Source: an uncultured Chloroflexia bacterium (lineage in GTDB: Bacteria; Chloroflexota; Anaerolineae; Anaerolineales; UBA4823). Taken from it: DNA of 64,000 nucleotides. Location of the stretch: the NCBI GenBank assembly GCA_963698715.1, contig CAVORW010000007.1:69190-133189 (forward strand), written 5' to 3'. Below, piece by piece: positions 1 through 16,037 of this stretch. The notes beneath the pieces were generated by a model. The model ran no database searches, was not told where the DNA came from, and was given only the letters and a program-made list of their open reading frames with translations. The first letter of the stretch is position 1. Each line of letters begins with the position of its first letter. A program made the position numbers and the translations under genes.

Positions 1-1609
1 TGGTGACAGAGACAGCGACCATTAAAGCCATCACGGCAATTGAGGTGCGGCTGAGCGAGCTGGTGACATCGCGAGGGGCCATTCGCCCCAAAGCGCCCCA
101 GATCCATCCGAGCAGTGGAGTGGCCCAGCGCATGAGGGTTCCAGTTGCAATTGGCACTAATAACGCGAACCCAACGATGGTGGCAAACGTCCCGCTGAAA
201 CTCACCAGCAGAGAACGGGTAGGTATAAGCAGCGCAAGTAAACCAGCGGCCAACAGGCCGATCCCCACCAGTGCAGCCACCCGGATCGCCCGACGCGCCT
301 TGGTTTCCAAACCAGAACGAGAAAGGGCTGCTCGCGGCGGTACGCTGGCAGCCTCCCAGGCAGGCGGGGCTGCCGTCAGTAACGTTGCCAATATCCCCAG
401 TAAGCTGCCTTTGACCAGGCTGGCAGGCAGTATTTGCACACCTTGAACGGATACCACGAAGAATAGGTCGTTGATGGTCTGGGTAACCATGCGAACAGCG
501 CCCTGCCCGAGGAAAATTCCCAGTCCCAGCCCAATTACAGATCCCAGCACGCCGACGACCAGGGCTTCGATGATCACCAGTCCAAATACTTCGCGGCGAG
601 TCACGCCCAGGCAGCGCAGCGTTCCAAATAGTGGCCGGCGCTGCACGACCGAAAATGTCATCGTGTTATAAATCAGGAACATGCCGACAACCAGCGCCAG
701 CAGGCTGAGGGCCGTCAGATTGATCCGAAAAGCAGAGGTCATCTGCTCAACCGTACCGGTGCGCGCCTCAACCGGCCTCAGGCGCGCATCTTGTGGCAGA
801 ATTGTTTCAATGGCCTGGATTGATAGATCGAGCTCGCTGCTGGCCAATCCCCCCAGCGGATCGTTCTCGGGCAGGATCAGGTCAATCCAATCCAGTTTGC
901 CAAGCTTGCCGGTCAATTCCTGCGCCGTTGAGATATCCGTCAGGAGAATGCTTTCAAGCGCTCTGCGGTTGATCCGATCCGTGTTGGGCGAGGTTTCCAA
1001 TAAACCGGCCACGAAAACGGTTTGCGTGAACCCGCCAATTTCCAGATCAAGATGGCAGCCCATTTCAGATGCCTCGGGGTTAACCCGCTGGGTGGGGCAG
1101 GGCCCAATTCCGTAGCGATTGGCAAGATCCGCTGGCAGTAAGATGGCATCTGGTTGAGTTAGAAAAGTGGTCAGTTCACCCACCGGGGTGCTGAAACTGC
1201 CTGCTGGCGGCCGGCTGGTATTTGTGCCGATGCCTCCGCCTAAGAAATCTCGGAAAGGCGCCTCTGCGAAAGGATCGACACCCAGCAGTTGCAGGGGCAC
1301 GTCTCCCAGCACCGGCGAGGATATATATTGACTGATGATCGGAGCAGCCGCCGAAATCAGTCCTGAGCGCCGCAAGCGGGTATAGACGGTTTCTTCCAGC
1401 CCTGAGGGACCGCCGGTAATTTGGTGGGTGGCTTTGCCTGCGACAGTGGCAGTGCTGAGGTCAAACGCCCGGCTGGCGCTGGCATTTGCCAGGTCTACGG
1501 CTACCACAACCGCCACACCAAGCGAGATGCCCAGCACCATCAAGATGCTTTGCCATGGATGGCGGATCAAGTAGCGCCAACCAATTCTTATTAGGGTTCT
1601 CTTAGCCAT
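1..1609 (-). CDS. FtsX/AttF-like ABC transporter permease (3' end outside window)
   Basis: Absent from the ORF track because there is no stop in the window. Read by hand from ATG 1609: MAKRTLIRIGWRYLIRHPWQSILMVLGISLGVAVVVAVDLAN; the same frame reads ...SRTSIAVMALMVAVSVT at the window edge, typical of double-FtsX permeases. Confidence 0.85.
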   Translation of the reverse strand, partial: MAKRTLIRIGWRYLIRHPWQSILMVLGISLGVAVVVAVDLANASASRAFDLSTATVAGKATHQITGGPSGLEETVYTRLRRSGLISAAAPIISQYISSPVLGDVPLQLLGVDPFAEAPFRDFLGGGIGTNTSRPPAGSFSTPVGELTTFLTQPDAILLPADLANRYGIGPCPTQRVNPEASEMGCHLDLEIGGFTQTVFVAGLLETSPNTDRINRRALESILLTDISTAQELTGKLGKLDWIDLILPENDPLGGLASSELDLSIQAIETILPQDARLRPVEARTGTVEQMTSAFRINLTALSLLALVVGMFLIYNTMTFSVVQRRPLFGTLRCLGVTRREVFGLVIIEALVVGVLGSVIGLGLGIFLGQGAVRMVTQTINDLFFVVSVQGVQILPASLVKGSLLGILATLLTAAPPAWEAASVPPRAALSRSGLETKARRAIRVAALVGIGLLAAGLLALLIPTRSLLVSFSGTFATIVGFALLVPIATGTLMRWATPLLGWIWGALGRMAPRDVTSSLSRTSIAVMALMVAVSVT

Positions 1610-1741
1610 TTTGTTTAATTACCGTTAAAAACCCAATATAACCAGGTTCTGATATCGCCAGAATATTGCAGGTGATCAGCTCTTTGAGTTTTTTAGATCG
1701 CCCATATGCCCAAAGTCATTCGCAAGCCCCGAGCAGCATCG

Positions 1742-2869
1742 CTAAAGTTCTTTACGAAACACTCTGTGATTCTTGTAAGCCGTGCCGCCCAAATTTATCA
1801 GGTCGCTGCGCATATTGCCTGCAGTTTCTGCAACCTGGGTCAGGTCAGCGTCGGTAAAGTTGAACTCGCGAATCGTATTTTCCATCTCTGCGTACATTAA
1901 AGCATTCCCGCCCCGCCCCTGATACTCCGGGAGGATGCCAGCACCATTCATGGCAACCCATTTGGTTCGCCTCAGCTCTAGCAGGAGATCGAGAATCCCA
2001 AAGGGGAGTAAGCGGCCCTGGTTGCGCTGGATGGCAGCCGAAACATCTGGAAATCCGAACAGAAATCCAACGGCTTCATTTTCATGGGCGATCACCTTGA
2101 TCAAGCGTGGATCGGCGATGGTAAGAATATTATCCACCACAAAATCGATCTCACGATCTGTCAGTGGGCAATACTCCCAATTATTGACAAAGGCTTTGTT
2201 ATAAGCCTCCCCGATGCGCTTGGCCCATGCTAAGAGTTCGCGTTTGTTATTAAATCTCAGAACTTGCAGGGACCCACGCTCCTGAACTCGCTTGGCAATG
2301 CTGTGGACCCGCTCAGGTAAGCGAAATTTCTCTGCATTTAAGTGGCACGACACGAAATCAACTTCTTTCCCAAAACCGAGGCTCTCGATCAGCTCCTGGT
2401 AGTATGGGTAGTTGTAGTTCATCATGGTCATCATCTGGCGATGTTCAAAACCATCTATTAGGATGCCATATCCGTCTAAAGGGCCAAAACCTTTGGGGCC
2501 AACAACAGCATTCAATCCGCGTTCGCGAACCCACTGGAAAACTCGCTCGAAGAGGGCGTTGGCAGCCTCCTGGTCATTCTCACATTCAAAAAAATAAAAT
2601 TGAGCCTGCTTTGTTCCATGATATTCATTGAAATGTCTGTTCTCCAACGCGGCTACCCGGCCGATATCCCGCCCATTGCGCTGAACAATAAAGAATTCAG
2701 CCTCCGAATGGTCATAAAATGGGTGTTTATCTGGGTTCAGTTGAGCTTTGATATCGACCAGGATCGGAGGCACCCACTGCTTCTGGCCCCGATAAAGACG
2801 AAAAGGAATCTCAATAAAGCGCCGAACCTGGCTTTTAGAACGGGTATTGATTTTTTCCACTGCAAGCAT
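1742..2869 (-). CDS. YghO-like GNAT-fold N-acyltransferase (bacterial ceramide synthase-like family)
   Basis: Motifs FIEIPFRLY..WVPP, GRVAA, FFECEND, GPKG..GILIDGF, YNYPYY, GILPEYQGRG. AGGAGG RBS before ATG 2869. Confidence 0.7.
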   Translation of the reverse strand: MLAVEKINTRSKSQVRRFIEIPFRLYRGQKQWVPPILVDIKAQLNPDKHPFYDHSEAEFFIVQRNGRDIGRVAALENRHFNEYHGTKQAQFYFFECENDQEAANALFERVFQWVRERGLNAVVGPKGFGPLDGYGILIDGFEHRQMMTMMNYNYPYYQELIESLGFGKEVDFVSCHLNAEKFRLPERVHSIAKRVQERGSLQVLRFNNKRELLAWAKRIGEAYNKAFVNNWEYCPLTDREIDFVVDNILTIADPRLIKVIAHENEAVGFLFGFPDVSAAIQRNQGRLLPFGILDLLLELRRTKWVAMNGAGILPEYQGRGGNALMYAEMENTIREFNFTDADLTQVAETAGNMRSDLINLGGTAYKNHRVFRKEL

Positions 2870-2950
2870 TGGTGCCTCCTGGCAGTTCAGCCGATAGTAA
2901 GAAAATGGGGTTATTGTCCTGATCAACAAGCTCTCATGCCATCTACGGTT

Positions 2951-3637
2951 TCAAGCCTGTGGCTCGCCGTCAAGTTTGCCCGCCCTTAGATACAAAATTC
3001 GATCGGCGTAGCTGGCTGCTTCCAGGCTGTGCGTAACCAATATCATGTTTTTTCCGGCTTGACGGGTGAGCCTGTCGAGCAGAGCCAGCACTTGTTTGCC
3101 GGTTTGCTCATCAAGGTTACCTGTGGGCTCGTCGGCTAACACCAGCAGTGGATCGTGGACCAGCGCTCTGGCAATGGCAACCCGCTGCTGTTCGCCGCCG
3201 GACAGCCGGTCTGGGAAGGTACTTGCCCGATCCAGCAAGCCTACGGCTTCTAACAGCGGTTCGGCTCTCTGGCGGGCAGCTTGGGATGAGACACCACCTA
3301 ATTCAAGCGGCAGCACAACATTCTCAAGTACGGTCAGGGTCGCAATCAAATTAAAAAATTGAAAGATAAAGCCGATATTATGGCGGCGAAAAAGCGTTCG
3401 CTGGCGTTCATCCAGGGCGGTCAGATTCTGCCCATTCAGCCAGATGCCTCCCTGGTCTACCAGATCAATGCCGCTGATGAGATTGAGCAGGGTGCTTTTT
3501 CCACTTCCACTTCTGCCAAGAATCGCGACGAACTCCCCCGGCTCAAAATGTGCGCAGGCGTCTTTAAGGATCTGGCGTGACCGACCACCTTCCTGGTAGC
3601 TTTTGGTGATATTGTCTAAGCGTAAAAAATCGTCCAT
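2951..3637 (-). CDS. ABC transporter ATP-binding protein (LolD/MacB/AttE-like)
   Basis: Walker [10 protein letters not shown], signature [25 protein letters not shown]. Confidence 0.93.
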
Positions 3638-3710
3638 TATTTTGGTATTCGGATAATTTCAGGCCGGTAGATCTGATCAGAGATTGATAGTCTGCGGCAA
3701 CCTCTTGTCT

Positions 3711-5117
3711 TCAACGCGCCTGCCCGTAGGCTGCCAGTGCTCGTTCTCGAGCCACGGCGTGATCGACCATCGGGGCGGGATAATCCTTGCCGATCCGACA
3801 CGCTGCCTGGCGCTGCAACTCATCCGGCATCAGCCAGGGTTCGTTGATGAACTTGTCTGGTACATTGGCGAGCTCTGGCAGCCAGCGACGAATAAACTTG
3901 CCACTGGGATCGTGACGCTTGCCCTGGGAGGTGGGATTGAAGATTCTGAAGTAGGGTGCCGCGTCTGTCCCCGTGCCGGCGGTCCACTGCCAGCCGCCGT
4001 TATTGGCAGCAGGATCCCCATCCAATAAGTGCTGCATAAACCAGCGCTCGCCCCATCGCCAGTCGATTAATAAATCTTTGGTCAGGAACGAGGCAGTTAT
4101 CATTCTGGCTCGATTGTGCATCCAGCCTGTTTGGAGAAGCTGGCGCATGGCGGCATCGACAACGGGATATCCGGTTTCCCCATTCTTCCAGGCATCGAAC
4201 TGCCGTGGGTCATTTAGCCAGGGAATCGCCTGCATCCTGAAGTTGTCTTGCCTGACCTGGGGAAAATGATACAGGATATGAATGTAAAAATCCCGCCAGA
4301 TGAGTTCATTGACCCAGGTTTCTGCTCCTTTACGATCTTCTGGATTGTCAGCAGACAGGAGAGTTTGTCTGGCAGCGGCAAGTGCCCGGCGGGCAGAGAT
4401 CATCCCGAAGCGCAAGTATGGTGAAAGGCGGGAAGTACCGTCTATATCCAGCTGGTTGCGACCTTCTGAATAGTCAAATATTGGAGAACCCAGTCCCTGG
4501 GTAAAGACATTCAGCAACCACTCGGCTTGCTGCTCACCGGCCTCAAATGGCACAGTTTCCCCAAGATTTGGTTTTTCCGGGACAGGCAAGCTGGCAATTC
4601 CATCGGGCGTATTGAGACTTCCATGCTGGAATTCAACCGGTTTTAATGGAGCAGGCAATGCCTTCCAGACCTTGCTGAATGGCGTGAAAACAGTATAGGG
4701 TTCGCCGTTCGCCTTTAAAACACTTCCCGGGGGTTGAATTGCTGGGCTGCCGACCCATTCCACCGGTACTTCAGCCGAGACCAGCTGATCGCGGCTGACG
4801 GCGAAGGGAGAGTGATCTTGTTCAGCATAAATCCGTCTGGCGCCGCTCAATTGCATTAAGCGCCGCAGAACAGTGTGCGGCTCGCCCTCATCAAGAATAA
4901 GCCGCCCGCCGTGGCGTTCAAGGTCGGCACCCAGAGAACGCAGCCCGTTGAAAAGAAAAGCGATCCGTTGCGGTGAGGCATACGTGGACTGAAGCAGCCG
5001 CTGATCCAGAATAAATACTGGGACAATGCGCTGATTCGAATCCAGAGCTGCGTTTAGGGCCTGGTTATCCTGAATGCGTAGATCGCGGCGGATCCACCAG
5101 ATCGCTGTTTGGGTCAC
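3711..5117 (-). CDS. phrB: Class I CPD DNA photolyase
   Basis: [61 protein letters not shown]. Confidence 0.93.
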
Positions 5118-5202
5118 AATTTACCTCGTTTCACTTGATGGATTAAAGGTAGCTTTTATATATACTGGATGTGGGGTCCCATTTTCCATGATTGATTGAG
5201 AA

Positions 5203-6189
5203 TCAACCTTGTAGATTTTGGCTGGCTTCATCCAGGATGGCAACCTCGGCCTCCGTCAGGCGCCAGTTAAGCGCGCCTGCATTTTCCAGCACCTGGCCCT
5301 CGTTCTTTGCTCCAGGTATCGGGATCGCGCCTTTACAGATCACCCAGTTTAAGGCTACCTGGGCTGGGGTTTTGCCATCATGGTCTCGGCCGATATCCCT
5401 GATGATCTTGAGCAGCGGTTGTACTGTAGCCAGGTAGCTGCGATTGTATCGACGCCCACGCACGCCGGGGGGCGGGTTATCGGGAGTATATTTTCCGGTT
5501 AATATACCTTGAGCCAGAGGGCTATAGGCGATCAAAGTTATACCGAGCTCGTGACACGCTCTCAAAAGGCCAGTTGTTTCGATCTTGCGATTTAACAGGT
5601 GGTATTCAACCTGGTTAGAGGCCAGTTCGAGACCGCGTTTCATTAAAATCAGATCCGTCTGGCGCATCTGCTGTTCGTTGTAGTTGGAGACCCCAACCGA
5701 TTTTGTTAATCCCAGTTCAAGCGCGTCTCCCAGTCCTTCGGCCCATTTTTCAACCGGAATAGGGAGAAATGGGAAATGGATTTGATAAAGATCGACGTAA
5801 GTGAGCCCCAGCCGTTTCAGGCTCTTCTTCAGCGCATTAATTAACGTTCCTTTCCACAGCCGCCATGGATAAGGTAAAAATTTTGTAGCGATGATAAGCG
5901 ATTCGCGCAGGGCTAGGTTTTCTCCGTCTGTGGACTGGCGCTCCCGTATGAATGTCCCTAACAATCGCTCCGAGTGACCAAATCCGTATATCTCGGCTGT
6001 GTCAAAGAAATTGATCTCGCTGTTCAGGCTGGCATGAAAAGCGCTGCGGACTTCATTTTCCGCATAATCTTGTCCAAACCCCCAGACTCTCCGATCTCCC
6101 CAGGCCCAGGCGCCGGTACCCACCAGTGGGATCTCCAGATCGGTTTTTCCCAGTCGAATTGTGCTGTTTTCAGAGATATCGATGCCCAT
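5203..6189 (-). CDS. Aldo/keto reductase
   Basis: FFDTAEIYG, IATK, DLYQIH, VGVSNY, AYSPLAQG, IPGAKN. Confidence 0.92.
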   Translation of the reverse strand: MGIDISENSTIRLGKTDLEIPLVGTGAWAWGDRRVWGFGQDYAENEVRSAFHASLNSEINFFDTAEIYGFGHSERLLGTFIRERQSTDGENLALRESLIIATKFLPYPWRLWKGTLINALKKSLKRLGLTYVDLYQIHFPFLPIPVEKWAEGLGDALELGLTKSVGVSNYNEQQMRQTDLILMKRGLELASNQVEYHLLNRKIETTGLLRACHELGITLIAYSPLAQGILTGKYTPDNPPPGVRGRRYNRSYLATVQPLLKIIRDIGRDHDGKTPAQVALNWVICKGAIPIPGAKNEGQVLENAGALNWRLTEAEVAILDEASQNLQG

Positions 6190-6273
6190 GCCGCTTAGCC
6201 TTCAGTAAGATGTCTTGTGATACGATCCTGACCAGGGTGCTGCTTCAATCGGTCCCATAGGGAGTAGTGATGG

Positions 6274-7212
6274 TCAAGGGATAGACCTGCACAAACCATC
6301 AATTAATTGGGCGCTCTCCCGGAGCTGGTCCATTTCCAGATCGCTTAATGGCGGATGAAGTGTGCTGAGAGACCCCTGTCCGCCAACCAGGTGGGGGAGT
6401 GAGATGGTTACATCACGGATACCAGCAATTTCCGGAGTAGGGGTACAGATGGTGAGTATGGCGCGCTGATCTTTTAATATGACTTCGACCAGCCGAGCGA
6501 TGGCGCTGCCAACGCCATAATAGGTAGACCCCTTACCTTCGATAATATGATATGCAGCCTTGCGAACCTGTTCGTCAATCTCTTCCTGGTCTTCGCTGCA
6601 CACATCGACGTTCTGGATCCGGCAGAATTCATCGAGGGGGATGCCGCCAATAGTTACCAGCGACCATGTCAGCACTTCAGAATCGCCATGTTCGCCAAGG
6701 ACATAAGCGTGGATATGTTGTGGATCAACCCCCAGCTTGCGACCTAAAAGCGCCCGGAATCGAGCTGTATCCAGCGTCGTGCCTGTACCCAGGACCCGTC
6801 CAGACGGCACACCAAATTTCCGGGCGTAGCGAGCAGCCAGGTGGGTCATCACGTCGACAGGATTAGTCGCCACCAACAAAACGGCATCTGGGGCATAGGT
6901 CAGAATGCTTGGAATGACCTGCTGGAATACCTTTGCGTTACGGCCGAGCAGCTCGAGCCGCGACTCGCCTGGACGCTGGCTGACGCCAGCCGTGATCACA
7001 ACAACCCGGGCACCTGTCAGAGAAGAATAATCCCCGGCGTGCACATGAACTGGATGAGCAAAGGGAACAGCATGGTAAATATCATCTGCTTCCGCCTGTG
7101 CCCGGGCTTGATTGAGATCGACTAATATAATTTCCCGACCAACTCCACGCATCACCATGGCAAAAGCCGCTGTTGATCCAACCAATCCGCTACCAATAAT
7201 CCCAATTTTCAT
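6274..7212 (-). CDS. ldh: L-lactate dehydrogenase
   Basis: GSGLVG Rossmann motif, substrate loop [14 protein letters not shown] (Gln, the LDH residue), NPVD, LDTARFR, GEHGDSE. Start overlaps the upstream stop (ATGA). Confidence 0.9.
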
Positions 7213-8729
7213 GGATTTAACCCTTCCTTCAGAATTAGTCGGGCGACCCGGAGACCACCCAATGCGACCGCTGCAGTTGATTGGCCTGGAAAAATGCTGT
7301 CGCCAACCATCCAGAGATCATCATCCAGCCGAGGCCCACGCTTGTTCAGCAGACTGGTTTGGGGGAAGCCGCCTACCCAGCCCCTGGCCCGGCGCGTAAA
7401 TCGTTGGAACGTGACCGGTGTGCCAGGCAAGACCAGACGGGCATACTCTCGTAAATCGGGGATGGCTACTTCTGCTGCAGCCAATACCTGTTCAGTATAA
7501 CGCGATTTTAATTCACTGTAGGCGGTTTTATCGTTCTTATATAGATCCCACCAGGGTGTCAGGTTGGTGTGAGTGCTGATTGTGAGGGCGCGCCGCCCTG
7601 CAGGAGCACGAACTTCATCCCAGGCGGGGCTGAGAGACAGAAATACCGAATTTCCTTCGCCGAGTGGTTCCTTGACGATCACCTGATGATGGAGAGGAAA
7701 ATCAGTTGGGATCGAGCTGCCATCCAGTCCGATGTAAAGCATAAACGCTCCCCAACTATTTTCGGGTTGGGACCGGAGGTGCTTTAAAGATAAGGGGAGT
7801 GGATCAGAAAGTAAATGTACAATGTTCCATGGAGGCAGGTTGGCGATTACCAGGTCGGCCACAAAACAGCCGCCCCGCTTAGTGTGCACCTCCGCTGGAC
7901 CACCCGGTCTTCGGATAATTGCGGTTACTTCCTGGCGGTAAAGAACCTTGCCGCCCTGCTGCTGGACAGCATCGGTCAGTTGTTTAGCTATCGTTCCAAT
8001 CCCCCCTACCATATGGACAACTCCACGGCGAGGCAGATCCAGTGCTGAAGCGGCGTAAAGCGCATTTGCATCTCGGCTGGTTGTTTGAGCTGAGATCAAC
8101 AGCTGCCCATCAATAAACTGCCTCAAACGTTTTGGGGCCTGCTGCAAATGATGCGCGGCTGGACGAAATGCATCTGCCACCAATCCTGGGCTCAGCCGCT
8201 GTAATGGAGCTTCCGCCACCCAGCGCAGCCCGGTTTCGATCAGCTGGCCCAATTGGGATGCGGTCTGAGGCGGCCAGGGCGGTAATTTTAGGGCCAGATC
8301 CCAGAGAGCATCTGCCCGTTTTTCTTGCCACTCAAAAAAAGAATCGCTGCCTGTCCCAAAAGCCAATCTCCGCTGCTGCCAACGTTCTTGATCATTCAAT
8401 AACTGGACCCTGGTCCCATCCGGCAAGTGTACAACCATTGCCAGGTTCTCCGGATGAGCCTGCCAGGATTGGATACCAGCTGATTTTGCCACCTGATCCA
8501 TTGGCCCGCCAGGGTAGAATCCGCCCGCCAGAGTGGCGCCGGCATCGAACCTGTAACCCTGATGGTAGAACGTTCCAGCGCAGCCTCCAGGGTATATATG
8601 GGCTTCGAGTACAGTTACATCTATGCCGGCTTTTGCCAGATGTGCCGCTGCGGTTAGTCCGCCAATCCCGGCGCCGATGATGATCGCTCGTTGTGCAGGT
8701 TTGGAATTAGTCTTGCCCGGGCGGTTCAT
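7209..8729 (-). CDS. Phytoene desaturase-family FAD oxidoreductase, CrtD (C-3',4' desaturase)-like
   Basis: [47 protein letters not shown]. Start at 8729 overlaps the SRPBCC stop (ATGA). Confidence 0.75.
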
Positions 8730-9166
8730 GATTCGAGTGAGCGGCGAGTTTTCCAACCTCGGTATGCGAATAACACCGGCATATTCAGCCACATAATGCG
8801 CCCAACAGCGCCCCAAAACCAATGATTTTTGGGCTCTGCTTGGATCTGATCGATGATTTGGGTCCGGTCTGCATCTACTGACTTAAAAATATGCCGGTGT
8901 TCCCATTTCTTAAATGGACCTTCAATTTGGGTATCTGTGAATCCGGACGCAGAGACATCATCAATTTGGGCCAGCCATCGAAGCGGCAGCGGGCCTAACC
9001 ACAGGGTAAACCGCATCCTGTCTCCCGCTGCGAGCATTGCGGGAGCCTCGTGAATGCTGACTATCACCGGTGGGGGGGTGATCGCTGCCATGCTGGCGGA
9101 TACGCGATGAAAATCCGTTACTTTTTCTATTGACGCACGAACAATAAAAGAATGAGTGTATTCCAT
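8726..9166 (-). CDS. SRPBCC (cyclase/dehydrase-like) family protein
   Basis: [29 protein letters not shown] pattern; usual neighbour of TIGR01777 in carotenoid and photolyase clusters. Confidence 0.8.
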
Positions 9167-9190
9167 GCTGTTCCTGATAAAATGAACGTA

Positions 9191-10108
9191 TTATTGTTTC
9201 AATACAGCTTGCAGTGCTGAAGCCGCATCCGGGTGTTCAAACTTGAAGCCAGCTTCGAGCAGGCGCTCCGGCAGCACCCGCTGGCCATTCAGCAGCACGG
9301 TCGACATTTCGCCGAATAATAACTGCATCATAAATGAGGGTACCGGAAAAATTGAGGGCCGACCGACGGTCTTTCCGATCGCCCGTTCGAAATCCTTGTT
9401 GCGAAGAGGGTTGGGTGTGGTCAGGTTATAGATCCCAGCAGCATTTGCGTTCTCGATCAAGAACCGGATCGCTCTGACTTCATCTGTTATGCTGATATAA
9501 GAAACCCACTGTTTTCCGCTTCCGATCGGGCCCCCAATAAAAAATTTAAACGGCAAGACCATACGCGGCAGAGCGCCCTGGCGTTTATCCAAAACGATAC
9601 CCGAACGGATAATCGCCCGCCTGACACCCAGGTCTTCAACAGCTGCAGTGGAATTCTCCCAGGCAATGCATACCTGGCTCTGAAATTCAGCCCCAGGCTT
9701 CGCGGTTTCGGTGATCTTCTCGTCGTCGCGGGACCCATAATACCCGATTGCAGAGCTTTGAATCAGCACTTTAGGTTTGATTTTGGCTTGTTTGACTGCC
9801 GCAACGATTGCCATCCCAGGTTCAACTCTGCTCTGGATAATTTTCTGCTTGCGCGCGTCTGTCCAGCGACCACCGGCAATGTTTGCCCCAGCCAGATTTA
9901 CGATGGCGTCAGCTCCATCAACCACGGAACCCCAGCCCGCAGCGGTTTTCCCATCCCAGCCAACAACCTGGATGTTCGCGCTATATCGGGCGCGGTTTTG
10001 CTCAGGAGAGCGGCTTAGAATAATTACTTCATGCCCTTCTCCTGCTAAATCTCTTGCCAGAGCGCTGCCGACTAAACCGCTTCCACCTGATATGATGACT
10101 TTCATCAT
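9191..10108 (-). CDS. TIGR01777 family NAD-dependent epimerase
   Basis: ISGGSGLVG, NLAGANIAGGRWT, SSAIGYYG, GPIGSGKQW, C-terminal GQRVLP..L..GFKF. AAGGAG RBS. Confidence 0.9.
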   Translation of the reverse strand: MMKVIISGGSGLVGSALARDLAGEGHEVIILSRSPEQNRARYSANIQVVGWDGKTAAGWGSVVDGADAIVNLAGANIAGGRWTDARKQKIIQSRVEPGMAIVAAVKQAKIKPKVLIQSSAIGYYGSRDDEKITETAKPGAEFQSQVCIAWENSTAAVEDLGVRRAIIRSGIVLDKRQGALPRMVLPFKFFIGGPIGSGKQWVSYISITDEVRAIRFLIENANAAGIYNLTTPNPLRNKDFERAIGKTVGRPSIFPVPSFMMQLLFGEMSTVLLNGQRVLPERLLEAGFKFEHPDAASALQAVLKQ

Positions 10109-10212
10109 GATTCTCCTTCCAGTCAACTATTCACCCATACTGAGGTTCTGTTTAAAAATTCCTGAGACACAGACAATTTTGGGTAATCTAATTTTAATTT
10201 TATATCTTACCA

Positions 10213-10241
10213 ATTATACTAAACCAAGACATGTTCGTCAA
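10213..10241 (-). promoter_or_regulatory. Sigma70 promoter for the photoprotection operon
   Basis: Minus strand TTGACG (10241-10236), 17-bp spacer, TATAAT (10218-10213). Confidence 0.85.
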
Positions 10242-10267
10242 GGTATTGTTTAATTAATGTTCAGATT
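10231..10267 (-). promoter_or_regulatory. Putative CarH operator: three TnnAC(A/G) repeats at 11-bp spacing
   Basis: Minus strand TGAACA-ttaat-TAAACA-atacc-TTGACG (plus-strand starts 10258, 10247, 10236). The third repeat is the -35 box. Fits the nnnnTnnACAn CarH consensus. Confidence 0.7.
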
Positions 10268-10269
10268 AC

Positions 10270-10298
10270 TTGACAGACAATCGATCCTATGCTAAACT
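10270..10298 (+). promoter_or_regulatory. Sigma70 promoter for carH
   Basis: TTGACA (10270-10275), 17-bp spacer, TAAACT (10293-10298) with an extended -10 TG. Confidence 0.8.
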
Positions 10299-10327
10299 AC
10301 TGTTGATATTAAATAGACGAATACCGA

Positions 10328-11299
10328 GTGAATATGAAAACATTACCTGATGTCCAAACTGGAAGCGAAGAGCCTTTATACAATATTGGAGTTGTGGCTC
10401 GCATGACCGGTGTATCAATGCCCACCTTGAGAGCCTGGGAGAGACGTTACGGTTTCCCAGAATCTGAGCGTACTACCGGTGGGCACCGTCTTTATTCAGA
10501 AAAAGATGTCCTGCGCTTGCGCTGGGTTAAGGCCCGGATCGATGATGGTTTGCAGACCTCCCAGGCCATCCTGGCGCTGCACCATCAAGAAGAAATAGGG
10601 CGATTGGTGCCGGTCGAACAGCCAGAGAGTTGGAAGGGGGATCGTCGTCCCGGAGGCGTCAACCAGTTAGATTCTTACCAGCAGCGCCTGATGGATACCT
10701 TGCTCAGGAGAGAGGTTGATACCGCCGATCGTTTATTGGGTGAGGCGCTCCCACTATCTTCTCCCGAGGATTTAATCCTGGATGTGATTGGCCCAACTTT
10801 TGCACAAATTGGCCAGGCATGGGAGAACGGGCATATCAGTATTGCCACTGAACACCTGGCAACGAACTACTTACGTCAAAAGCTGTTGATGTGGATGATG
10901 AGTGGTCCACCGCCCAGGCCTACAAAGCCGATTGTTTTGACTTGCGCCCCTAACGAATGGCATGAGGGCGGATTGCTGGCACTCGGTGCTCTATTGCGCC
11001 GGAGTCGCTGGCCGGTTGCATACCTGGGGCAATCCTTGCCATTACAAGATCTGGCCTCTTTCGTCCGTGATTTAAAGCCTAACCTGGTGATCGCGGTTGC
11101 AATGGCAGAGGAATCGGCCGGCGAGCTGGTCGATTGGCCTCAATATCTTCCTGAAGTGGCTCAAACTGGGAAACCAGTGATCGGATATGGCGGGCGCGTG
11201 TTCAGCCATCAGCCAGAATGGCGCTTGAGGATGCAGGGTGTTTATCTGGGTGACACCCTCAGAGATGGCATGCAAACGATTGAGCGATTGCTGACATAA
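10328..11299 (+). CDS. carH: AdoB12-dependent photoreceptor repressor, MerR family (CarH/LitR)
   Basis: MerR HTH with LRAWERRYG, W-x9-EH motif (WENGHISIATEH), B12-binding EWHEGG and YLG. Start may be ATG 10334. Confidence 0.88.
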   Translation: MNMKTLPDVQTGSEEPLYNIGVVARMTGVSMPTLRAWERRYGFPESERTTGGHRLYSEKDVLRLRWVKARIDDGLQTSQAILALHHQEEIGRLVPVEQPESWKGDRRPGGVNQLDSYQQRLMDTLLRREVDTADRLLGEALPLSSPEDLILDVIGPTFAQIGQAWENGHISIATEHLATNYLRQKLLMWMMSGPPPRPTKPIVLTCAPNEWHEGGLLALGALLRRSRWPVAYLGQSLPLQDLASFVRDLKPNLVIAVAMAEESAGELVDWPQYLPEVAQTGKPVIGYGGRVFSHQPEWRLRMQGVYLGDTLRDGMQTIERLLT

Positions 11300-11572: not shown

Positions 11573-12436
11573 CTAAATATTTGGCGAAACAAGTGTAAAA
11601 ACTGTTATTTCGGGCCGGCAGTTTAGCCTGACCCGGAACCTGGCCATTCCCAGTCCGCGGTTGGTGTACAGCAGCATCTTACCAATGTGGTAGAGCCCGC
11701 GTGGATATTTGCGCCCGTGGGGCGGCAGAAAAGGCGGGCCAATCCACGGTAAATTGACCTGGCCTCCATGAGAATGTCCGGAAATCTGTAAGTCAAACCG
11801 CCCGCTGGCAGCACTGGTATCTGCATAATCCGGCTCGTGCGCCAGTAAGATGGCTGTACCATGCGGCTCGATATGCCTTAATACAAGGTCCAGGCGATCA
11901 TAGCCATCGTAGGTGGAGTCGACTCCCCCAACGTGCAATCGGGCTTTAGCCCGCTGGATTGTGATGGCTTGGTTCCGTAATTCAAGCACACCGGCTCGCT
12001 GAAGCGCCTGGCGAATAACTGTGGCATTGCTCCAATGATCATGGTTACCTAAGACAGCCAGGCTCCCATCCGGTGCAGAAAGCCTTTGCAATTCCGATGC
12101 CAGTACGTCCACATATTCCTGTGGATTGTGGCTGACAAAGTCGCCAGTTATCGCGATCAGGTCTGGGTTTAATCGGTTGACCGTCTCGACGATGCCGGCT
12201 AAACGCGCCCGGTTCATCCAGGAATTCATGTGAAGATCGCTAATTTGTACGATTTGGTAGTGGTTAAATTCTGGCTGTAATCGCGGCAGCTGTAATGATA
12301 TCCGGTTGATCTCGACCCATTCTGGCTCGATCCGGGCAGCGTATTGAAGACCACCCAGGCTTAGTAGACCGCCGCTCACCGCGATCAGCGCGCCGACTTT
12401 TAAGAAATCACGACGATTGTATTGTTTAATATCCAT
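11573..12436 (-). CDS. YkuE-like metallophosphoesterase with a Tat-type signal
   Basis: NRRDFLK, SDLH, TGDFV, GNHD, LAHEPD, SGHSHGGQ. Confidence 0.88.
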   Translation of the reverse strand: MDIKQYNRRDFLKVGALIAVSGGLLSLGGLQYAARIEPEWVEINRISLQLPRLQPEFNHYQIVQISDLHMNSWMNRARLAGIVETVNRLNPDLIAITGDFVSHNPQEYVDVLASELQRLSAPDGSLAVLGNHDHWSNATVIRQALQRAGVLELRNQAITIQRAKARLHVGGVDSTYDGYDRLDLVLRHIEPHGTAILLAHEPDYADTSAASGRFDLQISGHSHGGQVNLPWIGPPFLPPHGRKYPRGLYHIGKMLLYTNRGLGMARFRVRLNCRPEITVFTLVSPNI

Positions 12437-12444
12437 AGGCTCCA

Positions 12445-13830
12445 TTAGGGCAGCCAAAGCTGCAAACGGTTATCTGTCAATCCCACGCCAAGCGCCATCC
12501 CTTTATCCGCTAAGGCTACCAATGCCAAATTGCTGTTCAATTGGCCCTGGAGGTCCAACTGCCAGGCCACCTCAGCCCCAGCGGCTGCATGGCGAATACC
12601 GGCCAGCCCAGTCAACTGGCGGTTGGGTACCAGCACTTCAACCTGGCCATCGCCATCGAAATCCGCTGCGGCTGTCATATCCAGATTCCGGCGTCCGAGA
12701 ATGTGAGAAGTATATCCGGATATCTGAGCGACCAACTCAAGGGTTTGCCCATTCAACCTGAAAAATTCGACCACCCCATTCAAGTGGGGAGTTAATACAT
12801 CGACAACTTCAATCTCGCCATTCGGACCAAAGGGGGCAGCTGCGATCGCATGCCGCCAGCGGTAGCCTTGACCAATCGATGAGCTGCTGGCGATGATTGC
12901 TCCTTGGGCATTATAAATGATTAAGCGGGCGCCCTGGTTATGATCGCTGATTGTGGCTATCAGCTCGGGTTGGCCATCACCATCGAGATCGGTCCAAATT
13001 GGAAAGATACCTTCGAATACATTTGGGTCTTCCAGTTGGATGACTAACCCAATTTCTGGGTAGGGCAAGAAATCGATTCTTGTAATCTGGCTGGCTTCAA
13101 TTCCATCTCCCAAAACGCCATGATCATACCGGTCCGTCGCGCCGTTATACAGCAAGAGCGATTTGCTGTCATTTTGAAGCAGGCGCGAGTCCGGCAGTGC
13201 TTGTAATGGCAGGTGTCTGGACTCGCCGCCCGTTTGGACCTCGATCAGGTTGCCGGTTTGATCGATCAAAACCAGGCTCCCATCAGCCATCTCAACCGGG
13301 TGGCTGAAATTTGATTGGGGGTATGAGCTAGCCGCTACCAAGCTGGCCTGAGCCCCTGACACTCGAAGTAGCGGGGGAGAGTTCGGAACCAGCTGGGCCG
13401 GCTGGATAGCAAATGGTTCAATGCTCTGGTCGTGACTATAAAAAGCCTGCACCTGGCCGTCTTCAAGGACAGCCACCCACAAACTGCCGTCTTGATAAGG
13501 CGCGCCCACCACCCAGACGGGAGCACCATCGAGTGGGATATCCCTGGGCAAAAAATCGGGTGGTTGTCCCCGGCCCTGGATATAACGATTCCCATCCGGT
13601 CTCTGGTAAGTATATGCAAACTCTGGTTGGATATTCGGGGGTTGGCTGGCTTTCGGCGAGCTGGCGGGGGATGGCGTGACTCCCAATACCACAGCCGAGG
13701 GTGAAGGGATCAGCAGCGAATCTGGCGAAGTCTGGCAACCCCAGAGAAGCATGCTCGCAGCTGCAGCCCCCCAGGTTAGCAAGCGGTGGAACATTCTGTC
13801 CGCAGAGTGCTTTGTTAACAAAGAATCCAT
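12445..13830 (-). CDS. Putative lipoprotein with FG-GAP/DxDGDG repeats
   Basis: LLWGC lipobox-like motif, Pro/Ser linker, DLDGDGQPEL, DFDGDGQVEV, RYDHGVLGD. TAATG coupling to the upstream gene. Confidence 0.7.
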   Translation of the reverse strand: MDSLLTKHSADRMFHRLLTWGAAAASMLLWGCQTSPDSLLIPSPSAVVLGVTPSPASSPKASQPPNIQPEFAYTYQRPDGNRYIQGRGQPPDFLPRDIPLDGAPVWVVGAPYQDGSLWVAVLEDGQVQAFYSHDQSIEPFAIQPAQLVPNSPPLLRVSGAQASLVAASSYPQSNFSHPVEMADGSLVLIDQTGNLIEVQTGGESRHLPLQALPDSRLLQNDSKSLLLYNGATDRYDHGVLGDGIEASQITRIDFLPYPEIGLVIQLEDPNVFEGIFPIWTDLDGDGQPELIATISDHNQGARLIIYNAQGAIIASSSSIGQGYRWRHAIAAAPFGPNGEIEVVDVLTPHLNGVVEFFRLNGQTLELVAQISGYTSHILGRRNLDMTAAADFDGDGQVEVLVPNRQLTGLAGIRHAAAGAEVAWQLDLQGQLNSNLALVALADKGMALGVGLTDNRLQLWLP

Positions 13831-14219
13831 TAAGCTTGACTTGGCAGAATTTTGTAGATCACACGGATTTGATCGGGCGTGTGGTTCGTATATCTTGCCC
13901 GGCCCAAATATTTTTGAGCCATTTTATCCATATGTGCATCCGCACCATCTTCTGTGATTTCAACAACTCTTCCGCGTATCTGGATATAGCGATAAGGATC
14001 TTCCGGATCTCTGATTTCGAGTGCAACTCGCGGATCGGTTGTCATGTTTAAATCTTTTTGCCGGCCACGGGCTGTGTTCACCCAGATATACCTGCCATCG
14101 TAATCGATCCATACAGGCGTTACTTGCGGGCTGCCATCAGGCATGAGGGTTGCTAAACTGGCAAAAGCTCTTTTATTGAACAAATCCAAATACTGTGGAT
14201 CGATGGTTGTTTCGCTCAT
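13830..14219 (-). CDS. PPOX-class F420-dependent oxidoreductase
   Basis: LATLMPDGSPQVTPVW, NTARGRQK..N...DPRVAL, YIQIRG. Confidence 0.88.
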   Translation of the reverse strand: MSETTIDPQYLDLFNKRAFASLATLMPDGSPQVTPVWIDYDGRYIWVNTARGRQKDLNMTTDPRVALEIRDPEDPYRYIQIRGRVVEITEDGADAHMDKMAQKYLGRARYTNHTPDQIRVIYKILPSQA

Positions 14220-14310
14220 CGTTCAACTCCTGAATACTTTTTCTATTTGGGGAAATCACTCGATCCTGCCGCTGTGGTGGGCCACCATCGATATTTCTCG
14301 GAACTCAATC

Positions 14311-14337
14311 AAAAACACCTCGACTTAATGAGGTGTT
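14311..14337 (-). terminator. Terminator downstream of tRNA-His
   Basis: AACACCTC/GAGGTGTT 8-bp stem followed by T residues on the minus strand. Confidence 0.55.
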
Positions 14338-14387
14338 GGTTAGCGAAATTCGCTGGTTTTGATCTGCCCGTTTAGGCAATAATAAAG

Positions 14388-14460
14388 GGTGCCAGAAGGG
14401 TTTCGAACCCTCAACCCCCGCATCCACAGTGCGGTGCTCTGCCATTGAGCTACTGGCACC
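14388..14460 (-). tRNA. tRNA-His (GTG) with genomic G-1; CCA not encoded
   Basis: GGTGCCAGTAGCTCAATGGCAGAGCACCGCACTGTGGATGCGGGGGTTGAGGGTTCGAAACCCTTCTGGCACC folds as a cloverleaf with anticodon GTG and a G-1:C73 pair. Confidence 0.96.
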
Positions 14461-14472
14461 ATATCGGCTTGA

Positions 14473-14501
14473 ATTCTAACACGAAGATTAGCAGGTATCA
14501 A
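14473..14501 (-). promoter_or_regulatory. Promoter of tRNA-His
   Basis: TTGATA, 17-bp spacer, TAGAAT with an extended TG, 12 nt upstream of the tRNA. Confidence 0.7.
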
Positions 14502-14559
14502 GAGATAATCATGATGAAAAATCCTCAGTGCCCATCGATCGATCCCTGGCCGCATACTA

Positions 14560-15834
14560 TTATTGTGCTAACATAGCCGCGATCACCCTGGCTGCCTGGC
14601 CCTGAGGAACGGTGATCTGTTCCCCGGTTTTAAGGTTCTTGACGGCAACCTCGCCCCGCAATTGTTCCTCTGGACCCAGTACAAGTGCGACCTGCATGCC
14701 CATCCGGTCGGCGTATTTAAATTGCTTCCCCAATTTGTTCTCTTCGGGATAGCTGGCCACATTTATACCCTCTTTGCGCAGCTGGTTAGCCAGCCTAAAG
14801 GAGGGGATCAGGGAGTTTTGGTCAAATATTGTGATCAGCACGGGTGCAGTTGAGAGTCCGGCATTTTCGGGCAGGCAGCCAAATTTGTCTAACACCAGGC
14901 TGACGACCAGATCGCCCATGGCAAATCCTACTCCGGGCAGTGGATCGCCGCCGACATCGCCCACCAGATTGTCATAACGCCCACCACCTAATATTGCCCG
15001 GAACTCACCGTCCTGATCCCAGGCCTCAAACACCGTCCCGGTGTAGTATTCCAATCCTCGAATGATGAACGGAGCGAAGCGCACGTACTCGCCCACGCCC
15101 AATGCGTCAATTGCGTTGAAAAAACGTACCAGTTCAGGCGATTTTCGCCACAATTCATCATTGACGAGATTGGCTTTCAGGCCATCGAACTGAGGTTCGG
15201 ACAGACCGATCTCCTGGGCATATTTGGCCCAATCGGATGCCGGCATTTTGTCTCGGCGGTCAATCAGGCGCAACACTTCAGGCCTGCGTTCTGTAGGAAT
15301 CTGAAGTGCTTCAAACTCGCTGTCCATAAGACGGCGGTTGTTGACCAGAATACTGATTTGCTCGGGTTGCAGGCCAACTTCACGAAAGAAAGAAGCCGCC
15401 ACAGCCACCATTTCGGCGTCGGCCTCCGGCTGGGCGACACCGATGAGATCGATATTCCATTGGAAAAATTCGCGGCTGCGTCCCTTTTGCGGGCGCTCAT
15501 AGCGCCAGAATGGGCCCCACGACCACCAGCGCTGAGGATAGACCATCTGGCGCTGTCGTTGGGCAACCATACGGGCCAGGCTGGGGGTCAATTCTGGACG
15601 CAGAGTGATTAAGTCACCACTTCTATCGGGAAATACAAACGACTGCTCCTTGACCAGTTCTTCACCCGATTTAGCCGCGTAGAGCTCAATCGACTCGATG
15701 AAGGGCGCATCATATTCTTGATAACCATAGGTTTCAGACACTCTTCGGACAGTCTGATACAGCCAGGTGCGCACAGCCATCTCTTCCGGATAAAAATCTC
15801 GGGTTCCTTTGAGGGATTGTATGGTAGTTTTCAT
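14560..15834 (-). CDS. hisS: Histidine--tRNA ligase
   Basis: KGTRDF, LRPELTPS, RYERPQKGRSREFFQ, RGLEYYTG, GGGRYD, C-terminal anticodon-binding domain. Start taken at MKTTIQ. Confidence 0.96.
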   Translation of the reverse strand: MKTTIQSLKGTRDFYPEEMAVRTWLYQTVRRVSETYGYQEYDAPFIESIELYAAKSGEELVKEQSFVFPDRSGDLITLRPELTPSLARMVAQRQRQMVYPQRWWSWGPFWRYERPQKGRSREFFQWNIDLIGVAQPEADAEMVAVAASFFREVGLQPEQISILVNNRRLMDSEFEALQIPTERRPEVLRLIDRRDKMPASDWAKYAQEIGLSEPQFDGLKANLVNDELWRKSPELVRFFNAIDALGVGEYVRFAPFIIRGLEYYTGTVFEAWDQDGEFRAILGGGRYDNLVGDVGGDPLPGVGFAMGDLVVSLVLDKFGCLPENAGLSTAPVLITIFDQNSLIPSFRLANQLRKEGINVASYPEENKLGKQFKYADRMGMQVALVLGPEEQLRGEVAVKNLKTGEQITVPQGQAARVIAAMLAQ

Positions 15835-16037
15835 AGATTGGGTGCCAATCTTTGTCCGTAATGAGGGATGAGGGCACATTGTAGCATAAATTATGGGCCT
15901 GCTAGTAATGGAACAAATCGAACTTATTAAAGTTAACGGCCCACGAATGGTTTCACTCCGGTAAGCAATTTTTGGGAGCCTCATCCTAAAAATTGCTTAC
16001 CATAAAGTAAACCTTCGCCCGATCAGTTTCCAATGGT

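Follow-up and report, generated by a model that had tools for sequence, protein, structure and literature searches.

The 64,000-nt stretch of DNA analysed here (the window, C7:69190-133189) belongs to the assembly (G000) of an uncultured bacterium of the Anaerolineales (Chloroflexota) with a size of 3.77 Mb and a completeness of 80.5%, and near its left end it encodes a CarH-type B12-dependent photoreceptor, carH, facing away from a run of genes headed by a CarH-type operator. We consider it probable that CarH, bound to adenosylcobalamin (AdoCbl), represses this run and a set of dispersed promoters in the dark and releases them in the light. This reading is built on motifs, repeats, gene order, and conservation, from which AdoCbl binding, repression, co-transcription, and release by light are inferred. 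We also lean towards the view that in several Chloroflexota lineages CarH acts as a direct switch for retinal phototrophy, repressing in the dark an NDQ-type sodium-pump rhodopsin gene and a heliorhodopsin operon, along with carotenoid, folate, photolyase, and lipid-remodelling genes. The run itself is modest in novelty, being a real CarH operon that is conserved among relatives. Its regulator and control region comprise the following (coordinates without a prefix are those of the window; C1, C2, C3, C4, and C6 are other contigs of the same assembly):

10334..11299, plus strand: carH, 321 aa from ATG, with MerR helix-turn-helix, B12-binding_2, and B12-binding domains
10270..10298, plus strand: predicted carH promoter, TTGACA-17-TAAACT, back to back with the operator
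10235..10267, minus strand: CarH-type operator, three tandem 11-bp repeats (AATCTGAACAT TAATTAAACAA TACCTTGACGA), 14/15 to nAnnTnnACAn
10213..10241, minus strand: predicted leftward sigma-70 promoter, TTGACG-17-TATAAT, 11/12

The carH product (for which GTG at 10328 is an alternative start) matches Pfam MerR_1 and B12-binding_2 above cut-off and B12-binding just below it (29.5 bits versus 32.1), and aligns with the Thermus CarH structure (PDB 5c8d) at an E-value of 7e-36. Both motifs given as defining CarH (PMC8156234) are present, namely Wx9EH (W163-x9-E173-H174) and ExHxxG (E208-x-H210-x-x-G213), which upholds the assignment to a B12-photoreceptor-type regulator made in a preliminary description of this DNA. 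Of the cobalamin/SignatureFinder motifs, ExHx2G, GG, GxxW, EH, and GxxxP are found, and SxV/T and the Gly of GxxH are replaced by other residues. Glu164 replaces the His after Trp that is a bis-His ligand of the light state; the photoactive CtMerR appears likewise to carry Glu at this position (PMC11796333). By these hallmarks the protein is likely a class I CarH, which would bind AdoCbl, repress in the dark, and let go in the light. A longer CarH type of 430-500 aa, with a C-terminal extension that has no Pfam match, is common in the class (L109, L208, L212-L215, L217-L221, L231, and L232); its genes adjoin crtB, TIGR01777, fasciclin, or heliorhodopsin genes, mostly with the same repeats nearby.

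The operator consensus nAnnTnnACAn was taken from PMC8156234, and the three repeats were scored over 15 positions. Class I CarH operators consist of three or four tandem 11-bp repeats over a promoter, and such an array is found at 10267-10235, where the third repeat contains the -35 element of the leftward promoter. The layout of back-to-back -35 elements and three repeats is kept in 29 of the 36 assessable orthologous intergenic regions, and we infer that carH is autoregulated. With a position matrix trained on 27 other genomes (threshold score 15), the head of the run scores 23 versus at most 4.5 within it, so that no internal operator is seen; no CarH-type operator was found in the remainder of the window right of carH either (best score 11.0). 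From the carH side leftward, the run comprises:

9191..10108, minus strand: TIGR01777/YfcH (ThyD-like) NAD-binding oxidoreductase, TIGR01777 over cut-off
8726..9166, minus strand: 146-aa conserved protein without Pfam or NCBIfam match
7209..8729, minus strand: CrtD/CrtH-like FAD carotenoid oxidoreductase, under equivalog cut-offs
6274..7212, minus strand: L-lactate dehydrogenase (LDH), TIGR01771 at 351.5 bits against a cut-off of 303.6
5203..6189, minus strand: aldo-keto reductase (AKR), by family match
3711..5117, minus strand: class I cyclobutane pyrimidine dimer (CPD) photolyase-like protein (phr), best PDB matches 1owl and 1dnp
2951..3637, minus strand: LolD/AttE-like ABC ATPase, by family match
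1742..2869, minus strand: GNAT-fold acyltransferase of the YghO (bacterial ceramide synthase-like) family, 375 aa, by homology
1..1609, minus strand: 5' part of an FtsX/MacB-type permease (889 aa, C7:68129-70798), leaving the window at its left end
C7:66910-68121, minus strand, outside the window: AttH-like double-lipocalin gene, PDB 2ich at 1e-51

As the preliminary description had stated, carH diverges from at least nine co-directional genes (minus strand, within 1-10108) with gaps of 132 bp or less and two ATGA overlaps; from the carH side the spacings are 24, -4 (ATGA), -4 (ATGA), 84, 85, 73, 81, and 132 bp. It had also directed attention to the left of the window, where an AttH/CrtC-fold gene does lie 7 bp past the permease, as the tenth gene of the run; crtI and crtB, likewise sought there, lie on another contig (C4). 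The Pfam CrtC domain of the AttH-like gene is common to hydratases and AttH-type carriers, and the nearest structure is AttH (2ICH). For the carotenoid oxidoreductase, the C-3',4' desaturase model TIGR02733 gives 298 bits versus a cut-off of 550, and we name it CrtD/CrtH-like only. LDH is the sole LDH/MDH-family match in the assembly, and phr the sole photolyase match. Minus-strand genes continue for a further ~11 kb left of the window, which makes co-direction weak operon evidence here; as proof of a single operon it was rejected, a second promoter dividing this longer minus-strand stretch. Internal promoters or terminators, which the preliminary description had named as able to split the run, occur only at chance level (10 promoter-like matches versus 10.3 expected; 11 terminator-like matches versus 12.0 expected), and no terminator-like site lies within the run's spacers.

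We compared 40 loci around carH orthologs (our own and 39 others, many ended by contig borders), in which the cargo recurs as TIGR01777 (18 loci), AKR (15), CrtD/CrtI-like (14), GNAT (13), photolyase (12), LDH (11), permease (9), and AttH (7). In one locus (L056) crtI-crtB and a lycopene cyclase gene stand inside the same run. Among relatives the operator is retained with rearranged gene order, placing GNAT, AKR, LDH, or ABC genes first or second: GNAT (L060) or AKR (L069) lies directly behind the operator, and the ABC pair directly behind carH (L037).

Operators of the same kind are dispersed over the genome. The published consensus alone yields five 14/15 sites in the 3.77 Mb, versus 0-1 in six shuffles, and all five lie upstream of regulon-type genes: the run head, a second operator on C7 (described below), a three-domain fasciclin lipoprotein (C2:95753), a DoxX/SDR pair (C1:654439), and a dps-rhodopsin pair (C1:708387). 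A threshold of 13/15 was rejected as non-discriminating (10 sites observed versus 3-9 in shuffles). The matrix reaches at least 15 in 10 of 1673 intergenic regions, versus 1.1 in 15 shuffles, and adds folE-folB-folK (C1:404543), DUF2867-SOUL-heliorhodopsin-AKR-methyltransferase (C2:85422), and crtI-crtB-cyclase-P450 (C4:231216); photoprotection-type genes follow 8 of the 11 top upstream sites. The matrix is not a mere promoter detector: among 271 sites that strongly resemble sigma-70 promoters, no more than 7 score at least 15.

Several of these sites are conserved. Close crtI orthologs stand behind a site in 7/8 relatives' genomes, versus 0/16 distant crtI-like loci away from carH; the fasciclin gene does so in 8/8 assessable loci of relatives, DoxX in 4/13, and heliorhodopsin in 8/17. 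The six closest folE copies have a site in five cases, and the other folE copies in none (0/24); the family holds two folE classes, one mostly with the operator (L079-L084) and one without (L085-L108), and the examined copy of this assembly is of the first kind. Upstream of the heliorhodopsin operons (L109, L113, L118, L123, and C2:85422) stands an operator variant, in which the array has its centre not at the -35 but at a -10-like TATAAT within the second of the three repeats. Two genomes with such sites have no carH match at 1e-30 (G313, 84% complete; G331, 74% complete). A further three-repeat site at C3:739361 (L077; 13/15, matrix score 18.0) lies antisense to its downstream gene, within a cluster that we take to be that of the mevalonate pathway (HMG-CoA reductase, synthase, thiolase, and an OB-fold gene); this site possibly links CarH to isoprenoid supply.

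The rhodopsin gene begins 45 bp after dps on a contig separate from the run, behind a site placed over TTGACA-17-TAAGAT. Its product has the NDQ motif and the retinal lysine (N99, D103, Q110, and K236 in helix G) and matches sodium pumps of the KR2 type (PDB 3X3B, 8JH0) at an E-value of ~1e-86. The preliminary description, which spoke of a lineage usually treated as non-phototrophic, misses this target, the most interesting of all. Among the best 80 of 362 rhodopsin loci, 25 were Chloroflexota by title and all of these were of the NDQ type; in six of the 25 a sense-strand site scoring at least 13 lies no more than 400 bp away, and in one more it lies no more than 1.1 kb away, and of the non-Chloroflexota loci with enough upstream DNA, one of 52 reaches 13 and none 15. 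CarH-family proteins were searched for in 24 of the 25 NDQ genomes (one duplicate isolate being left out) and were matched in 10, at 33-38% identity; a site precedes the pump in 7/10 genomes with a CarH-family gene versus 0/14 without (Fisher p 3.5e-4, a value overstated since four of these seven genomes appear to be related to one another). An alignment of five distant CarH proteins from pump genomes shows the W, EH, and ExH residues to be kept. Two open reading frames (ORFs) directly upstream of one of these rhodopsin genes (L127) match a large ORF of this assembly (C2:231254-234946) at 43-49%.

Sediment RNA libraries contain pieces of this genome, most of them at 99% identity or more. In those sequencing runs that were retrieved through the carH stretch, dps and the rhodopsin gene are covered by contigs at near 100% identity, with zero cover on the flanking ~2.3 kb and 2.1 kb; one contig joins the two genes, and in two studies cover stops 15 bases past the stop codon. 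This is a hint of expression and not of light control.

In the proposed mechanism, CarH with AdoCbl would in the dark occupy the three repeats covering the -35 of the leftward promoter. On illumination it would let go, and this would free a single transcript, predicted to hold all ten genes, together with about seven other predicted promoters, including those of crtI-crtB, folE, the heliorhodopsin operon, and the pair of dps and sodium-pump rhodopsin. The photolyase, carotenoid, folate, Dps, AhpC, and fasciclin genes would provide photoprotection, AKR would likely clear reactive carbonyls, LDH would likely re-oxidise NADH, and the GNAT and AttE/F/H exporter would likely remodel or move membrane lipid; LDH, AKR, GNAT, and the exporter would probably keep a basal, light-independent level as well. 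The genome encodes PduO and two methylmalonyl-CoA mutases, and CobS had no match in the 80.5% complete assembly; the cell therefore likely scavenges B12 and adenosylates it, and a shortage of B12 would then open the regulon too.

Several observations weigh against this scheme. In the regulator, neither SxV/T nor GxxH is kept exactly (GxxH reads NEWH), and its 162 bits versus a cut-off of 400 place it outside the narrow CarH equivalog NF052513. Within the run, weak promoters could fit into four spacers of 73-85 bp and a fifth of 132 bp, and the RNA-library contigs over the run are short, scattered, and never span it, so that they cannot show one transcript or rank its genes. For three of the 11 top upstream sites, the gene that follows has no clear link to light. 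Moreover, 11 of 14 GNAT loci away from carH keep LDH/AKR/GNAT/ABC blocks without a site of at least 15 (of the remainder, two have an operator at the head and one is cut), and GNAT homologs occur in 32 of 36 family genomes; these genes are thus not light-specific cargo everywhere. Such figures suit an arrangement in which CarH controls the dispersed photoprotection promoters and, in the run, its head only, LDH, AKR, GNAT, and ABC-AttH being housekeeping passengers that are transcribed mainly from weak promoters of their own and gain little from light: the 11 operator-less loci also lack photolyase and a CrtD-like gene in the fetched stretch, the assembly holds one copy each of the LDH and YghO-like genes, and chance-level 9/12 promoter-like matches precede phr and the permease. 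We regard this as rather unlikely, in view of the short spacers in relatives (AKR-phr at most 18 bp in 9/9, LDH-AKR at most 47 bp in 6/6), with no 10/12 promoter-like site in any true spacer, and of the rearranged loci L060, L069, L037, and L068, where GNAT, AKR, or the ABC pair comes first or second behind the operator. The claim that LDH, AKR, the acyltransferase, and an AttE/F-like exporter are light-regulon cargo is supported as to their place behind the operator in changed orders, and falls short as a general rule. Since most non-carH blocks have no operator and several keep partial order, these genes are likely long-standing members of the operon, with a use outside light control as well.

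For the rhodopsin, the doubts concern both the site and the pigment. The kinship of four of the seven site-positive genomes means that these are not independent, three of the 10 CarH-positive pump genomes have no site, and the published consensus separates rhodopsin promoters poorly (the six positives within 400 bp reach 10-13/15, the rest up to 11), so that the separation depends on the lineage-trained matrix. Neither Blh nor an RPE65/carotenoid oxygenase for retinal was found in the 80.5% complete assembly (the PF15461 control for Blh had no match, and the check was repeated with TIGR03753, which matched in 2/4 other genomes). If the dps-rhodopsin site were an AT-rich promoter that resembles an operator by chance, or the target of some other regulator, the rhodopsin would stand outside the CarH regulon. 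Such a reading would accord with the AT-rich spacer and imperfect third repeat of the site, with the 18 of 25 Chloroflexota NDQ loci (in the same best 80 of 362) that have no site, and with the protein queries, in which rhodopsin was not matched in four relatives nor Dps in five, the same-genus genome included (PF01036 over 56 relatives also gave no match, as did its positive control). We judge this improbable, because the site is one of only five at 14/15 in the genome and lies over a promoter, because sites stand directly before the pump amid other neighbours only where a CarH-family gene exists, and because they are nearly absent from the non-Chloroflexota loci. The regulon could, alternatively, be real and yet act in sediment chiefly as a B12-status or general stress switch, in which apo-CarH leaves the promoters open and light is minor. 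Apo-CarH is reported to bind DNA poorly (PMC8156234), the gene complement for B12 fits, and dps and the rhodopsin gene are covered in sediment RNA libraries. Against this, the targets are light-specific (photolyase, two rhodopsins, carotenoid genes) and the CobS negative comes from an incomplete assembly, and we hold it to be distinctly improbable. Control of the run and the dispersed promoters by AdoCbl-bound CarH, with release by light, remains our preferred reading.

The GNAT is the only homolog of E. coli YghO in the genome (full-length, 24% identity, E 1e-39). Homologs with which it shares about 70% identity carry the label Anaerolineales. It has no relative among PDB structures, and its structure atlas match is labelled only 'GNAT'. 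We take E. coli YghO to be the bacterial ceramide synthase bCerS, and in E. coli BL21 yghO lies four genes from spt with an acyl carrier protein gene between. In the accessible part of PMC11087976 bCerS is described as an acyltransferase, yghO being unnamed there, and Anaerolineae have been proposed as sphingolipid producers (PMC11334938). Of the bacterial ceramide pathway, made up of serine palmitoyltransferase (Spt), bCerS, and CerR, this genome has the bCerS/YghO homolog; Spt was not found here or in the same-genus genome, the sole alpha-oxoamine synthase here being of the Kbl/BioF type. A Spt-like class, below cut-off, occurs in 17/36 relatives and in 14/28 holders of a GNAT ortholog. Light-controlled ceramide synthesis finds no support in this genome and stands as no more than a lead, with no Spt found in these two genomes and half of the GNAT holders without the Spt-like class, and the GNAT is likely an N-acyltransferase for a membrane lipid. 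In 11 loci of relatives (L305-L315) the Spt-like gene has an SDR-like ORF directly upstream, with a dinucleotide-binding motif in at least 7 of the 11; this pair is a candidate sphingoid-base module in Anaerolineae.

The surroundings of the run include the following features to the left of the window:

C7:66199-66909, minus strand: PHP-domain gene broken by frameshifts (L002), flanked by AttH and the second operator
C7:66178-66146, minus strand: second operator, over TTGACA-17-TATAGT, 3 kb left of the window

The second operator heads two alpha/beta hydrolases, an AhpC/TSA-like ORF, an NAD(P)H-binding protein, and an SDR, and follows directly after the AttH end of the run in 4/6 relatives. Where this assembly has the frameshifted PHP-domain gene, the same-genus genome holds a 297-aa PHP-domain ORF; the frameshifts may be decay or an assembly error. 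The 146-aa protein, presumably SRPBCC-like, is encoded next to yfcH in 13 loci, and its structure prediction gave a pLDDT of 35. Over its gene region, long antisense ORFs occur in several relatives (L059:15727-16749, L033:6059-6733); they cluster by similarity, have no Pfam match, and are likely shadows of real genes. To the right of carH (11573-15984, minus strand) are genes for a YaeI-like metallophosphoesterase, an FG-GAP repeat protein, and an F420-dependent PPOX-class oxidoreductase, and a hisS-like gene.

The preliminary description spoke of a lineage usually treated as anaerobic. The genome encodes a heme-copper oxidase subunit I, nearest to CtaD, which is split over two overlapping ORFs (C6:91396-93334), and according to PMC8446752 genes for respiration are common across the Anaerolineae; on these grounds a strict anaerobe was rejected, and stress from light plus oxygen in surface sediment is plausible.

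CarH/LitR proteins have been described mainly as regulators of light-induced carotenoid production (PMC6739363). Those of Thermus thermophilus (class I; 5C8D, 5C8E, 3WHP), Bacillus megaterium, and Myxococcus xanthus share with the system described here the domain order, the Wx9EH and ExHxxG motifs, the three tandem nAnnTnnACAn repeats over a sigma-A promoter, and carotenoid targets (PMC8156234). Unlike them, the present protein has Glu164 for the His after Trp and NEWH for GxxH, and its predicted targets are scattered across four contigs. Among these targets are two rhodopsins, LDH, and a YghO-like acyltransferase, and the available text of PMC8156234 names none of the four. The Pseudomonas class II LitR (PplR/PmlR) likewise controls multiple loci (photolyase, folE, SDR, FAD oxidoreductase, and furan fatty acid synthase), so that folE and oxidoreductase cargo are already known; however, it is without full B12 binding and acts through a LOV protein, and no rhodopsin is among the genes named in the available part of PMC9758184. 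Cargo overlap with the LitR regulons of P. putida, Thermus, and Burkholderia was compared in part.

The rhodopsin shares N-D-Q and the helix-G lysine with KR2-type pumps and here stands in Chloroflexota, behind dps and a CarH-type operator. Heliorhodopsin neighbourhoods are reported to hold MerR regulators, photolyase, SDR, and alpha/beta hydrolases (PMC11109279), and carotenoid and photolyase genes (PMC8612252); as far as the available parts of these sources go, such neighbours are viewed as possible protein partners or context, whereas the operator found here suggests transcriptional control at a distance. With E. coli YghO/bCerS the GNAT is homologous, spt being nearby there and no Spt found here. 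The AttE/F/H unit with its AttH lipocalin (2ICH) has the same ATPase, large permease, and double lipocalin, whereas here the GNAT gene lies between ATPase and permease and the unit is within a CarH operon.

Judged by sequence, the mechanism and operator are those already known for class I CarH, and photolyase, folE, and oxidoreductases are known LitR-family cargo; the notable new part is the predicted B12-photoreceptor switch on a sodium-pump rhodopsin. We found no paper on CarH with Chloroflexi or Anaerolineae, and, in the titles and abstracts searched, which exclude most subscription papers and all supplements, none that puts an ion-pump rhodopsin under CarH/LitR. To our knowledge, how bacteria make rhodopsin genes light-responsive is largely open, and the present prediction, if true, would put a name to the light sensor that controls a bacterial ion-pump rhodopsin gene and locate the operator at which it acts. 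The operator also gives a light-stress context to poorly known families (TIGR01777, YghO-like GNAT, AttE/F/H, DoxX, and SOUL). CarH is known as a switch for protection from light; if the prediction is true, it would in addition enable an abundant, mostly uncultured sediment lineage to exploit light by means of a sodium pump.

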